NCBI GenBank assembly: GCA_028820505.1
Contig: JAPPIT010000017.1
Span: 1,409-65,408, forward strand
Direction of reading: 5' to 3'
DNA: 64,000 bases
DNA from: Defluviicoccus sp.
GTDB taxonomy: Bacteria; Pseudomonadota; Alphaproteobacteria; MPNO01
The position numbers and the translations under genes are program-made. The notes beneath the pieces are model-generated. The model was not told the DNA's origin. It did no database searches and saw nothing but the letters and a program-made list of their open reading frames with translations. Each line of letters opens with the position of its first letter. The first letter of the stretch is position 1. Below are positions 12,140 through 19,864 of the stretch, in pieces.

Positions 12140-12988
12140 ATGAAGTCCCCCGATCCGGGCGCCGCGCCCTGCCTTGCGACGGCGCATTCGATCACAGCGG
12201 CCGAGTTCGACTGCGAGGTGATCGAAAACGACGCGGTCAACCCGGAATACATGCATATCGTGGCTACGGCCGATCCGCTGGCGACGTCGATCCGGGCCGG
12301 CCAGTTCTTCCACATGCTGTGCCCGAAGGACGGCCCCAACGGACCGTTCTTCCGCCGTCCGATGAGCGTCTACCGCGCCGATCCGGAAGCCGGGACGGTC
12401 GCCTTCCTCTACAAGGTCACGGGGAGCGGCACGCGGGCGCTGGCGACCCTGGCGCCGGGCGACCGCCTCGACCTGTTCGGGCCGCTCGGCGTGGGTTTCT
12501 CGCTGGAGCCGGGCTGGCGGCGGATCGTGGTCGTCGGGCGCGGGGTGGGGCTCGCGACGCTCGCCCCGCTCGCCGAGCTGGCGGCCGCGAACGGTATCGG
12601 CGTGACGGCGGTCCTCAGCGCGCGGTCGCCGGCGGTGATGATGTCGGCCGACCGCTTTGCCGCGGCGGGTGCGGACGTCATCGAGGTCACCGACGCGGAG
12701 GGGACCAGCGGGCCGGCGCGGCTGGAACGCGTGCTGCGCGGTCTGATCGCCGACGGAAAGGCGGATGCGTTCTTCACCTGCGGCTCCAACCGGCTCCTGC
12801 TGCTGCTGCAGCGGCTCGGACGCGAGTTCGGCATTCCCGGGCAGGTCGCGCTCGAACAGCAGATGGCCTGCGGGCTCGGCATGTGCTTCTGCTGCGTGCG
12901 CGAGTTCCGCGTCGACGGCGGCGTCGCCCATCGCCGGGTGTGCTGGGACGGGCCGGTGTTCGACCTGCAGGAGGCGATCTCTTGGTAG
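12140..12988 (+). CDS. pyrK: Dihydroorotate dehydrogenase electron-transfer subunit (FAD, 2Fe-2S)
   Basis: RRPMSV, GPLG.GF, GRGVGLA and EQQMACGLGMCFCCV...RVCWDGPVF. Confidence 0.92.
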   Translation: MKSPDPGAAPCLATAHSITAAEFDCEVIENDAVNPEYMHIVATADPLATSIRAGQFFHMLCPKDGPNGPFFRRPMSVYRADPEAGTVAFLYKVTGSGTRALATLAPGDRLDLFGPLGVGFSLEPGWRRIVVVGRGVGLATLAPLAELAAANGIGVTAVLSARSPAVMMSADRFAAAGADVIEVTDAEGTSGPARLERVLRGLIADGKADAFFTCGSNRLLLLLQRLGREFGIPGQVALEQQMACGLGMCFCCVREFRVDGGVAHRRVCWDGPVFDLQEAISW

Positions 12989-12990
12989 AC

Positions 12991-13929
12991 ATGCGGGTCG
13001 AGATCGGCGGGGTGCGGCTGGCCAACCCGGTGATGCCGGCCTCCGGCACGTTCGCGGACGGCCTCGACAAGGCGGTCGATTTCGAACGGCTGGGCGCGAT
13101 GGTGATCAAGACCATCACCCGCGAGCTCAGGGTCGGCAACGCGCTCCCCCGGGTCTGCGAGACGCCGGAAGGGATGCTGAACTCGATCGGCATCCCGTCC
13201 AAGGGCATGCCCTATTTCCACGAGGAGACCTTGCCGACCTACGCGCGCTACGCGACGCCGCTGGTGGTCAGCATTTCGGCGCCGACCGTCGACGGGTTCG
13301 CGAGCCTCGCCGAGGAGGTGAGCCTGCCGGGAGTCGCGGCGATCGAGATCAACATCTCATGCCCCAATCTGGAAGCCGACGGCCAGGCTTTCGCCAACCA
13401 CGTCGACTCCACCGAGCGCGCGGTCGCCGCGATCCGGCGCCGCACCTCGCTGCCGCTCTGGGCGAAGCTGTCGCCGAACGTCACCGACGTCGCCGAGATC
13501 GGCCGCGCGGCGGAAGCCGCCGGCGCCGATGCGCTGGTGGTCGCCAACACCTTCCTCGCCATGGCGGTGGATATCGAGAGCCAGCGGCCCAGGCTCGGCA
13601 GCGTGACCGGCGGCCTCTCGGGACCCGCGATCCGCCCCATCGTGGTCCGCATGACGTATCAATGCGCGCGCGCGGTCGACATCCCGGTCATCGGCTGCGG
13701 CGGTATCGCGACGGCGGAGGACGCGATCGAGTACATGCTGGCGGGCGCGAGCGCGGTCCAGGTGGGGACCGTCACCTTCGTCCACCCGACGGCGATGATC
13801 TCGGTCCTCGAAGGAATCGAGGATTACTGCGTGCGCCGCGGCTACGAGCGCGTGACGGACCTCGTGGGCGCGCTCTCGGTCGAGGAGGCCGACGAGACCG
13901 ACATGGAATGGGTCGACCCGCTCCGATGA
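12991..13929 (+). CDS. pyrD: Dihydroorotate dehydrogenase catalytic subunit, family 1B (NAD-dependent)
   Basis: GN..PRVCET.EGMLNSIG, EINISCPN (catalytic Cys), KLSPNVTD and GGLSG; ATG 12991 follows pyrK. Confidence 0.92.
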   Translation: MRVEIGGVRLANPVMPASGTFADGLDKAVDFERLGAMVIKTITRELRVGNALPRVCETPEGMLNSIGIPSKGMPYFHEETLPTYARYATPLVVSISAPTVDGFASLAEEVSLPGVAAIEINISCPNLEADGQAFANHVDSTERAVAAIRRRTSLPLWAKLSPNVTDVAEIGRAAEAAGADALVVANTFLAMAVDIESQRPRLGSVTGGLSGPAIRPIVVRMTYQCARAVDIPVIGCGGIATAEDAIEYMLAGASAVQVGTVTFVHPTAMISVLEGIEDYCVRRGYERVTDLVGALSVEEADETDMEWVDPLR

Positions 13930-18267: not shown

Positions 18268-18282
18268 CGTTCAAGACCGTCG

Positions 18283-19089
18283 ATGGCCTTCATCGAGATA
18301 GACGAGATCGACCTCACCTACCGCAACAGCGCGGGCGACGAGGACGATTCGGGAACGCTGGCGCTGCAGGGCGCCAGCGTGACCATGGAGCGGGGCGACT
18401 TCATTTCCCTCGTGGGACCGAGCGGCTGCGGCAAGTCGACTTTGCTCAAGGTGGTGGCCGGGCTCATCAAGGCCAACAAGGGACGGGTCTCGGTCGCGGG
18501 ACAGATCGTCGACCGGCCGCTCAAGATTGTCGGCATGGCATTCCAGAACGCTACGCTTCTGCCGTGGCGCTCGACCCGGGAGAACGTGCTGCTCCCGATG
18601 GAGATCGTCGAGCCGCACCGCCAGCAATTCCGCAGGGAAAAGGCGAAATACGAGGCCATGGCGGACGACTTGCTCGCAACGGTGGGGCTCGACGGTTTCG
18701 GCGACCGCGCGCCGTGGCAGTTGTCGGGTGGAATGCAGCAGCGTGCACAGCTATGCCGCGCCCTGGTGCATGAGCCCGACCTTCTGCTGCTCGACGAGCC
18801 GTTCGGCGCGCTCGACGCGTTCACCCGCGAAGAGCTCTGGGACGTGCTCCAGACGCTCTACATGAAGCGCCAATGCACCGTGATGCTGGTCACCCACGAC
18901 CTGCGGGAGGCGGTCTACCTCGCCGACAAGGTCTACGTGATGAGCGCGCGGCCCGGGCGGATAATCCTCGAGCGGGACATCGAGATGGAGCGCCCCCGCA
19001 CGCTCGAACACATGTACCGGCGGGAAACGGTGGAGCTCGTCCAGGAATTGCGCCACCACATCAACATCGCGAGATCGGACGATGAGTAG
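18283..19089 (+). CDS. ABC transporter ATP-binding protein (NitT/TauT)
   Basis: GPSGCGKST, LSGGMQQR, LLLDEPFGALD and VTHD. Confidence 0.95.
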   Translation: MAFIEIDEIDLTYRNSAGDEDDSGTLALQGASVTMERGDFISLVGPSGCGKSTLLKVVAGLIKANKGRVSVAGQIVDRPLKIVGMAFQNATLLPWRSTRENVLLPMEIVEPHRQQFRREKAKYEAMADDLLATVGLDGFGDRAPWQLSGGMQQRAQLCRALVHEPDLLLLDEPFGALDAFTREELWDVLQTLYMKRQCTVMLVTHDLREAVYLADKVYVMSARPGRIILERDIEMERPRTLEHMYRRETVELVQELRHHINIARSDDE

Positions 19090-19864
19090 CAAGACCGTCG
19101 AGCGGTTGTCGCCCTGGCTCGTGACGCTTGCGTGCATCGTCGTCTGGGAAATCGGCGTGCGCCTGTTCGACGTCCCCGCGGTGGTGCTGCCGACCGCGAG
19201 CTCGTCGTTCTACGCGGTGTGGGAATTCCGTGTGGCACTCTGGCACAACGCGGTCCCGACGCTGATCGCGACACTGCTGGGTTTCGGCATCGCGGTCGTG
19301 TTCGGCATCGTGCTCGGCGTCTTCATCGGTATCTCCAAACCGGTATACGCGGCGCTCTACCCGCTGCTGGTCGCTTTCAACAGCATCCCCAAGGTGGCGG
19401 TCGTGCCGATCCTGATGGTCTGGTTCGGGATTGGACTGACCACGGCGACGATCACCGCCTTCATTCTCTGTTTCTTCCCCATCGTCGTGAACGTCGCGGT
19501 CGCGCTCGCCACCATCGAGCCCGAGCTGCGCGACGTGCTGCGCGCGCTCGGCGCGCATGAGCGGGACATCGTCATCAAGGTCGGAATCCCGCGCTCCCTG
19601 CCCTACCTGTTCGCCTCGCTCAAGATCGCGATCACGCTGGCCTTCGTAGGCGCCGTGATCGCGGAGACCGTGGCGGGCGGCGACGGGATCGGTCACCTCA
19701 TGCTGGTGGCGAGCTCGAACTTCAACATGGCGCTGATGATCGCGGGGCTGATCGTGATCGCCGCCATGGCGATCGGCATGTATGCGATCTTTGCGGTTCT
19801 CGACAACCGCTTTACCGGCTGGGCAACCCGAGGCGATATCCAGTACGCGACCGCGGGCGGTTAG
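19082..19864 (+). CDS. ABC transporter permease (NitT/TauT)
   Basis: Six TM segments, IPKVAVVP, EAA-like loop, IPRSLPYLF.SLKI. Confidence 0.93.
   Translation: MSSKTVERLSPWLVTLACIVVWEIGVRLFDVPAVVLPTASSSFYAVWEFRVALWHNAVPTLIATLLGFGIAVVFGIVLGVFIGISKPVYAALYPLLVAFNSIPKVAVVPILMVWFGIGLTTATITAFILCFFPIVVNVAVALATIEPELRDVLRALGAHERDIVIKVGIPRSLPYLFASLKIAITLAFVGAVIAETVAGGDGIGHLMLVASSNFNMALMIAGLIVIAAMAIGMYAIFAVLDNRFTGWATRGDIQYATAGG

Follow-up and report, generated by a model that had tools for sequence, protein, structure and literature searches.

An operon of a wastewater Defluviicoccus that most likely both builds pyrimidines and breaks down orotate

The DNA examined here, hereafter the window, is a stretch of 64,000 nucleotides from the alphaproteobacterium Defluviicoccus sp. 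(contig JAPPIT010000017.1 of assembly GCA_028820505.1). At positions 12140 to 19864 it carries eight co-directional genes on the plus strand, which we identified from profile scores and sequence motifs: pyrK, pyrD, a gene for an M20-family amidohydrolase, pyrC, pyrE, and three genes for an ATP-binding cassette (ABC) importer. Judged from its sequence, this operon of a wastewater bacterium most likely both builds pyrimidines and breaks down orotate. We consider it somewhat better than an even bet that the row is a lineage-specific fusion of an accessory orotate-to-aspartate module with housekeeping pyrimidine genes, a set that the module has partly displaced and of which the row holds the sole pyrE and the sole class II pyrC. 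The window contributes a form of the module that is fused to housekeeping genes and displaces them, together with an importer of the ABC type.

Enzymes of the row and the candidate ureidosuccinase

A sequence-only reading of the window had described five tightly packed or overlapping enzyme genes followed by a three-gene NitT/TauT transporter, and profile scores confirmed this layout and the identities of all eight genes. The first gene (12140-12988) encodes a PyrK-like electron-transfer subunit of a class 1B dihydroorotate dehydrogenase (DHOD; FAD, NAD, 2Fe-2S). Its DHODB Fe-S binding domain scores 45 bits against a cut-off of 23.9 (PF10418), and both the cysteine pattern C-x4-C-x2-C...C and an RPMS motif are readable; the protein has the C-terminal four-cysteine 2Fe-2S domain and the FAD/NAD-binding fold of PyrK. 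The best NCBIfam matches are PyrK equivalogs, all under their cut-offs (NF000799, the best, at 126 bits against 314), and identity to the pyrK products adjoining the M20 gene at other loci ranges from 44 to 98%. The protein belongs to a divergent PyrK-like clade that always adjoins the DHOD of the module.

The catalytic subunit of this NAD-linked dihydroorotate dehydrogenase/orotate reductase is encoded by pyrD (12991-13929). It passes class 1B equivalog models (NF005574, 345 bits against a cut-off of 269; TIGR01037, 302 against 270), aligns over its full length with the DHOD B structures 5ue9 and 1ep1, and, compared with 5ue9, keeps all of the orotate-pocket motifs (VIK, MLNSIG, NISCPN with the catalytic Cys, KLSPN, ANT, and GGLSGP). 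Family 1B enzymes are NAD-linked and can run in reverse as orotate reductases, which is the role that the sequence-only reading had given this one. The class given there stands, and a net flux in vivo from orotate to dihydroorotate is the direction that we infer for PyrK/PyrD.

The two pyr genes behind M20 are equally recognizable. The product of pyrC (15200-16255) is a class II (E. coli-type) dihydroorotase (TIGR00856, 406 bits against 293) with readable HxH, carboxylated-Lys, and His/His/Asp motifs, including GTDSAPH, and that of pyrE (16299-16994) is a 231-aa orotate phosphoribosyltransferase (OPRTase) of the alpha type (NF001729, 394 bits against 245) in which the phosphoribosyl pyrophosphate-binding motif is present.

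Between pyrD and pyrC lies the gene (13926-15203) on which the proposed breakdown of orotate turns. Its product belongs to the hydantoinase/carbamoylase family of M20 enzymes (TIGR01879, 269 bits against 204) and stays under every specific equivalog cut-off, reaching 188 bits against 598 for AllC (TIGR03176) and 278 against 520 for ErtE, the N-carbamyl-L-glutamate amidohydrolase (NF058540). The best NCBIfam matches are the generic "Zn-dependent hydrolase" and "allantoate amidohydrolase" subfamilies, and NCBI names the orthologues only "Zn-dependent hydrolase." The metal ligands H86, D97, E131/E132, H199, and H397 are invariant in 15 orthologues, and the di-metal ligands align with those of the nearest structures, the L-N-carbamoylase of Geobacillus stearothermophilus (3n5f) and AllC (1z2l), with which the protein also shares its fold family and the conserved carboxylate-binding Arg. 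It nevertheless differs from both as a distinct clade. Compared with four paralogues of the same genome, 3n5f, and 1z2l, the clade is distinguished as follows: the substrate-binding Asn that precedes the conserved substrate-binding Arg by 13 residues is replaced by Arg, RGNxRH is inserted, VPRxLR takes the place of TPMxxR, and one residue is deleted before SHNP. A substrate site with extra positive charge would suit a dicarboxylate, of which carbamoyl-aspartate is one. Gene context and enzyme family together point to N-carbamoyl-L-aspartate as the most likely substrate of the M20 protein, with aspartate, CO2, and NH3 as the products, and they make the protein a candidate N-carbamoyl-L-aspartate amidohydrolase, or ureidosuccinase (EC 3.5.1.7). 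A full-text literature search, with most subscription journals outside it, turned up neither a gene to which ureidosuccinase had been assigned nor any account of this cluster or of another orotate-catabolic one.

The genes are closely joined. Two nucleotides separate the pyrK stop from the pyrD ATG at 12991, the pyrD/M20 and M20/pyrC junctions are 4-nt overlaps (ATGA and GTGA, respectively), and the pyrC-pyrE gap is 43 nt; pyrK, pyrD, M20, and pyrC are probably translationally coupled. A spacer of 205 nt (16995-17199) separates pyrE from the importer genes. It matched no Rfam family, including the thiamine pyrophosphate element sought there as for ThiY-type importers, and showed no promoter-like site and only one weak terminator-like hairpin (17114-17130), not above chance; a promoter and terminator scan of 11900-20100 likewise gave nothing above shuffled expectation. 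Beyond the spacer, the binding-protein gene is followed by a gap of 54 nt, the ATPase and permease genes overlap by 8 nt, and the next gene after the permease gene is atpH, at 20002.

Spread of the module and its probable link to orotate import

Surveyed across other genomes, the gene set that the sequence-only reading had singled out, pyrK-pyrD1B-M20(-pyrC-pyrE), turned out to be a widespread conserved module. A scan of one genome per species yielded 591 relatives of the M20 protein, and among the best 80, which we examined, almost all of the M20 genes adjoin a pyrE-like gene, with pyrK-pyrD1B present in about 45 cases and pyrC in about 30. In the same 80, a major facilitator superfamily (MFS) transporter gene lies directly upstream of pyrK in 32 loci, an XRE-type helix-turn-helix (HTH) regulator is encoded at 34, and an AspA-like Lyase_1 protein is encoded between M20 and pyrE in 6. 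The link between the M20 clade and pyr-type genes holds in almost all of 94 loci from Alpha-, Beta-, Gamma- (plasmid), and Deltaproteobacteria-like taxa.

In many Alpha- and Betaproteobacteria the module is an addition to a complete canonical pathway. We checked 16 module genomes for extra pyr copies and found a class 2 pyrD elsewhere in 15 of them, the cluster DHOD being additional in the eight that have one. A canonical pyrE besides the cluster copy occurs in Bordetella, Comamonas, two Variovorax, Herbaspirillum, Mesopusillimonas, two Roseomonas, Bradyrhizobium, and Oleispirillum genomes, and both Variovorax genomes have two class II pyrC genes; in eight or more other genomes, then, the cluster's pyr genes are accessory. 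The module is also carried on plasmids. An MFS gene and the row pyrK-like-DHOD-M20-pyrC-HTH regulator-hypothetical gene, without pyrE, are found in 53 Klebsiella plasmid records. In the one that we opened, the IncFIB plasmid pBckp091-1 of Klebsiella pneumoniae (L128), the module lies beside lacY-lacZ and a copy of ISKpn26. The PyrK-like protein of these plasmids is annotated as "hypothetical protein" and the M20 protein as "Zn-dependent hydrolase." Extra, mobile, regulated, and transporter-linked copies of reversible pyrimidine enzymes, joined to a decarbamoylating hydrolase, look like a catabolic route, to judge from their sequences.

Reduced, two-gene versions also exist, in which pyrE and M20 adjoin LysR regulators and tripartite tricarboxylate transporter (TTT) or amino-acid-type transporter genes. 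At eight loci (L039, L044, L047, L059, L062, L084, L095, and L096) the LysR gene is divergent from a gene for a long-branch PyrE paralogue (PyrE2) followed by M20; TTT or polar-amino-acid ABC transporters accompany the two-gene versions in Bordetella, Comamonas, Acidovorax, Herbaspirillum, and Methylobacterium, and the two-gene-version genomes that were tested have class 2 DHOD only. The M20 protein of the Bordetella two-gene version has Val at the clade's Asn/Arg position, and the substrate of the two-gene versions may therefore differ.

Two further observations concern the accessory proteins. A conserved 108-aa protein without a Pfam match (family F13) is encoded after the PyrE paralogue or the HTH regulator in modules of Variovorax, Pusillimonas, and Klebsiella plasmids (L063, L129, and 6 other loci). 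The organism's own genome encodes an orthologue of the XRE module regulator (62% identity) among other neighbours (C131:16413-17291).

An experimental anchor for orotate comes from a different type of importer. Proteins of tripartite ATP-independent periplasmic (TRAP) transporters that bind orotate were reportedly first described by Vetting et al. in 2015. In a Maridesulfovibrio genome a TRAP system stands directly upstream of a row orthologous to M20-pyrC-pyrE of the window (XRE regulator / DctP-DctQ-DctM-M20-pyrC-pyrE), and its DctP matches the PDB entry 4NN3 over the full length (E 3e-196). This entry is a crystal structure, with orotic acid bound, of a TRAP binding protein from Maridesulfovibrio salexigens (PMC11668362), and orotic acid is among the new TRAP ligands listed in a review (PMC5812351). 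Orotate import next to M20-pyrC-pyrE is therefore not peculiar to one lineage. The pyrC and pyrE of the Maridesulfovibrio cluster are sole copies, as they are in the genome of the window.

The window importer, a candidate orotate importer, is unrelated in type to the TRAP system, being an NMT1/THI5-like ABC system. Three Pfam domains identify it as NitT/TauT-type: a periplasmic binding protein that is a candidate orotate binder (17200-18228; PF09084, 137 bits), an ATPase (18283-19089; PF00005, 109 bits), and a permease (19082-19864; PF00528, 87 bits). The best NCBIfam matches of the ATPase are NitT/TauT-type ATPases, all under cut-off, and the models for taurine, sulfonate, nitrate, and thiamine-pyrimidine importers are all far under their cut-offs for this system. 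The structure nearest to the binding protein is that of ThiY, which binds the thiamine pyrimidine FAMP (3ix1, E 5e-17), a match that says little about specificity. On a megaplasmid of Neorhizobium sp. EC2-8, the same three-gene ABC family lies directly behind pyrK-pyrD1B-M20 on the same strand (binding protein 40% identical, permease 58%, and an ATPase split into pieces of 46 to 56%, about 55% overall). In N. galegae, genes of this ABC family are oriented divergently from one for a regulator that belongs to the XRE family of the module. With these linkages and the strict conservation of the importer genes in the genus of the window, a functional link between the importer and the module is likely, though unproven.

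Two side observations belong with the importer. A G+C-rich palindrome (GGGGCGGGCCGCGCGCCCGCCCC) lies in the interval between the binding-protein and ATPase genes (18229-18282) and may act as a hairpin within the operon, setting how much binding protein is made relative to the membrane components. A paralogue of the window importer, likewise an NMT1-type ABC system (C167:631-4255; binding protein 39%, ATPase 61%, and permease 53% identical), adjoins an isochorismatase-family hydrolase and gave no clue to a ligand.

Pyrimidine genes of the genome and the history of the row

The sequence-only reading had presented the row as a system for orotate uptake, salvage, and degradation rather than a biosynthetic operon. 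The conserved module, its extra copies elsewhere, the associated importers and regulator, the 4NN3 match, and the Neorhizobium ABC genes all favor the first half of this statement; the exclusion of biosynthesis did not survive a search of the genome itself. In this assembly, rated 100% complete with 3.6% contamination, the window pyrE is the sole OPRTase gene (the only TIGR00336 match and the only tblastn match), the window pyrC is the sole copy with no second class II pyrC present, and no class 2 pyrD was found, so that here the cluster's pyr genes are not extra to a complete housekeeping set. It follows that de novo synthesis also depends on genes of the row: on pyrE certainly, on pyrC very probably, and on pyrD possibly. 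The PyrE itself is of a housekeeping type; it shares 62% identity with the PyrE that Roseomonas uses for housekeeping and 46% with the cluster copy of that genus. In a tree it sits on short branches with housekeeping (alpha-type) sequences, and the PyrE paralogues from clusters of Beta- and other Alphaproteobacteria fall into three clades with long branches.

The other de novo genes lie elsewhere. Neither pyrB nor pyrF is in the window, as the sequence-only reading had stated (carA/B, which it had also declared missing, were not searched for). The single pyrF of the genome is on contig C15 and the single pyrB, for aspartate carbamoyltransferase, on C149 (TIGR00670, 264 bits against 237; C149:11194-13170 with the next gene). 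Thus, of the separate class 2 pyrD, pyrB, and pyrF that an independent biosynthetic pathway might have shown, the last two are present and the first is absent. The sequence-only reading was to be refuted if the window held the genome's only pyrC, pyrD, and pyrE and the M20 enzyme did not hydrolyse carbamoyl-aspartate, or if the dehydrogenase preferred uracil or thymine. As to the copies, pyrE and class II pyrC are indeed the only ones, and for pyrD there are two other DHOD-like candidates, a gene on C149 and a pyrK-like/pyrD1B-like pair on C135.

The C149 gene directly follows pyrB and encodes a 290-aa, divergent class-1A-like protein that scores 142 bits, under all cut-offs, and has the motif NLSCPN; by matching Pfam score and coordinates it occurs in all genus members and in one sister-genus genome. 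It is a candidate for the biosynthetic DHOD. The second pyrK-like/pyrD1B-like pair (C135:75014-76827, minus strand) is 80 to 91% identical in 6 of the 7 genomes sampled across the order (L121-L127) and 63% in one family genome; Pfam matches place it in most of the order, genomes that lack M20 included. Its PyrD-like protein passes an NCBIfam DHOD equivalog, but its pyrimidine pocket is changed (MLNxIG to IIQSIG, NISCPN to NISCPT, and GGLSGP to GGLVSP), and the pair may act on another substrate. Given the altered pocket and its presence also where M20 is lacking, we did not accept it as the separate biosynthetic DHOD, although it may be one, and we do not regard its DHOD function as proven. Should it lack that function, the DHOD of the cluster must be the biosynthetic enzyme in g4 and g5, two sister genera without a further candidate. 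Two genes resembling class I dihydroorotases were also considered as an alternative pyrC and set aside: the one on C68 passes an allantoinase model, the one on C214 matches a generic domain model only, and neither adjoins pyrB.

Relatives of the organism (G000-G040) show how the row may have been assembled. Of 41 relatives, 31 have an M20 orthologue. The same row is found in a record labelled Defluviicoccus sp. (M20 93% identical), and four further genus genomes keep it whole, from the divergent genes for a 2-hydroxyacid dehydrogenase and an MBL-fold protein on its upstream side through atpH, as does every genus member examined. In sister genera the two upstream genes and the five-enzyme order pyrK-pyrD-M20-pyrC-pyrE are retained, without the ABC importer, and other families of the order keep M20-pyrC-pyrE or pyrK-pyrD-M20-pyrE. 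Because the whole row is kept in the genus and its five-enzyme core in the sister genera, the arrangement is more than chance.

The type of PyrE switches together with the presence of M20. All 7 M20-negative genomes tested in the order have a short-type PyrE, and 6 of these lack the 231-aa type (G030 has both); M20-positive genomes of the order have the 231-aa type only, beside M20, with a second 231-aa copy away from M20 in G028. Class 2 pyrD is lacking only in this genus and two sister genera (g1, g4, and g5) and is present in the rest of the order. The simplest history, drawn from presence and absence and not from a reconciled tree, is that an M20-PyrE unit arrived and replaced the resident short-type pyrE and that class 2 pyrD later gave way to the class 1B DHOD in part of the family.

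Proposed working, competing explanations, and neighbouring genes

We propose that the ABC importer would bring in orotate, a task that would fall to MFS, TRAP, or TTT systems elsewhere. PyrE, by its family membership, would convert part of the orotate to orotidine monophosphate, a salvage reaction. PyrK/PyrD would reduce the remainder with NADH to dihydroorotate, in keeping with the enzyme class. Since dihydroorotase is reversible, PyrC could then open the dihydroorotate ring to carbamoyl-aspartate, and the M20 protein, if context and family are a guide, would remove the carbamoyl group to give aspartate, CO2, and NH3; an aspartase-like lyase would act after it in some lineages. The module would presumably be regulated. 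It would have displaced the ancestral short-type pyrE in this lineage, and class 2 pyrD as well in the genus and two sister genera, and a single operon would now carry both synthetic and degradative flux through the orotate node.

The chemistry has a precedent. The degradation of orotate by Clostridium (Zymobacterium) oroticum, reportedly worked out in the 1950s by Lieberman and Kornberg, is said to proceed through an NADH-dependent orotate reductase (EC 1.3.1.14), dihydroorotase, and ureidosuccinase (EC 3.5.1.7). These are the same three chemical steps as those proposed here, with the same class of reductase (class 1B DHOD with a PyrK subunit), but here they would belong to a proteobacterial mobile cluster with importers and a regulator, and in the organism's own genome pyrC and pyrE are shared with de novo synthesis. 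The reductive catabolism of uracil and thymine (PydA or PreT/PreA, dihydropyrimidinase PydB, and beta-ureidopropionase PydC), whose layout the sequence-only reading rightly saw mirrored in the row, follows the same logic of reducing the ring, opening the cyclic amide, and removing the carbamoyl group, and its last step can also be performed by an enzyme of the M20 hydantoinase/carbamoylase family. The module differs in that its substrate would carry a carboxylate, its enzymes are DHOD B and dihydroorotase rather than dihydropyrimidine dehydrogenase (DPD) and dihydropyrimidinase, and its product would be aspartate rather than beta-alanine. In the pyr operons of Bacillus and Lactococcus, the same two-subunit enzyme takes part in de novo synthesis and is encoded beside pyrC- and pyrE-type genes; in the window, by comparison, pyrB, carAB, and pyrF are not among the genes of the row, M20 stands between pyrD and pyrC, and an importer lies behind pyrE.

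If the proposal is right, the known reductive breakdown of orotate could gain a gene for its last enzyme, an orphan EC number would be filled, and many genomes would acquire a new nutrient pathway, the module being widespread in soil, water, and host-associated proteobacteria and occurring also on Klebsiella plasmids. The window would show a catabolic module absorbing or displacing essential biosynthetic genes, which bears on how pathways exchange parts. For automatic annotation, it means that "pyrD/pyrC/pyrE" in this context are not simply biosynthetic. A more far-reaching version, that the M20 protein is the long-missing ureidosuccinase, that the mobile module took over the housekeeping pyrE and probably pyrD, and that the operon is bidirectional with its direction set by the NADH/NAD+ ratio and the supply of orotate, is offered tentatively, and we rate it at less than an even chance. 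An organism that passes through anaerobic and aerobic phases in turn would be well served by such an operon.

Several points weigh against an operon that works in both directions. A carbamoyl-aspartate hydrolase co-translated with the sole pyrC and pyrE would form a futile cycle with aspartate carbamoyltransferase unless it were controlled kinetically or transcriptionally, and the XRE regulator of the module is unlinked here, its orthologue lying on C131. A pure degradation pathway does not explain why PyrE is the most constant partner of M20, and two-gene pyrE2-M20 versions occur in genomes with class 2 DHOD only. In g4 and g5 only the cluster DHOD has a canonical orotate pocket and must therefore work synthetically there. 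The ABC importer adjoins the enzymes only within this genus among relatives, and its binding-protein family is found also in unrelated heterocycle and amide clusters.

Some of these points would be accommodated by a purely biosynthetic operon, in which the NAD-linked class 1B DHOD took the place of the quinone-dependent class 2 enzyme, the ABC importer has no functional tie to the genes beside it, and the M20 protein has a homeostatic, overflow, or metabolite-repair role, recovering aspartate from surplus or mis-made N-carbamoyl amino acids outside any nutrient-degrading route. The sole-copy pyrE and class II pyrC and the lack of a class 2 pyrD are what such an operon would show, as are the translational coupling of M20 to both pyrD and pyrC, its co-inheritance with the 231-aa PyrE across the order, the canonical pocket confined to the cluster DHOD in g4 and g5, and the lack of ABC genes at the family and order loci. 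We nonetheless regard this explanation as unlikely, although it deserves to be taken seriously, in view of the extra module sets carried by Klebsiella plasmids and by genomes whose canonical pathway is complete, the importers, regulator, and sometimes aspartase-like lyase that those sets have of their own, the neighbouring binding protein that matches the orotate-bound 4NN3, the linkage of the same ABC family to the module in Neorhizobium, and the other DHOD-like gene directly after the sole pyrB of the genome. Another explanation, that the true substrate of the module is only related to orotate, be it exogenous dihydroorotate, N-carbamoyl-aspartate, or a substituted orotate, with PyrE or PyrE2 as a sensor or in some other role, is improbable. 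The two-gene versions with LysR and amino-acid-type ABC or TTT transporters in class-2-DHOD-only genomes would fit such a substrate, as would the very long branches of the PyrE2 paralogues, one of which NCBI names only "phosphoribosyltransferase family protein," and the Bordetella M20 protein without the clade's substrate-site Arg; the window row itself, by contrast, has a DHOD with a full orotate pocket and a housekeeping-type OPRTase, and the sole experimentally characterized module neighbour binds orotic acid.

The remaining two explanations concern the identity of the hydrolase. That the M20 protein is an unrelated passenger in a pyr operon, for instance a general L-carbamoylase or an allantoate amidohydrolase, would agree with its generic NCBIfam matches and the NCBI name of its orthologues, but the near-constant linkage of the clade to pyr-type genes over the 94 loci, its scores under the AllC and ErtE equivalog cut-offs, and the clade-specific changes at the substrate site make this quite improbable. 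Least credible of all, and very improbable, is a reductive uracil or thymine pathway in which the DHOD-like pair reduces uracil, PyrC opens dihydrouracil, and the M20 protein is a beta-ureidopropionase. The layout does parallel PydA/B/C and some M20-family enzymes are beta-ureidopropionases (structures 1r3n and 8c46); against this, the catalytic subunit has a DHOD pocket (NISCPN, MLNSIG) and not one of the DPD type, PyrC clears the dihydroorotase equivalog (406 bits against 293), the genome has a separate PreA-like protein on contig C30, and at other loci the module is accompanied by an orotate-binding TRAP protein and by aspartase-like lyases. We rejected the uracil reading on the pocket motifs and the context.

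On the upstream side, genes for a D-2-hydroxyacid dehydrogenase and a metallo-beta-lactamase (MBL)-fold hydrolase with weak similarity to acyl-homoserine lactone (AHL) lactonases lie on the minus strand at 10090-12068, divergent from pyrK. The position of this pair is kept in the genus and sister genera. We considered the two genes as possible module members and rejected them: they are kept only within the family and not at other module loci, and we regard them as neighbours.

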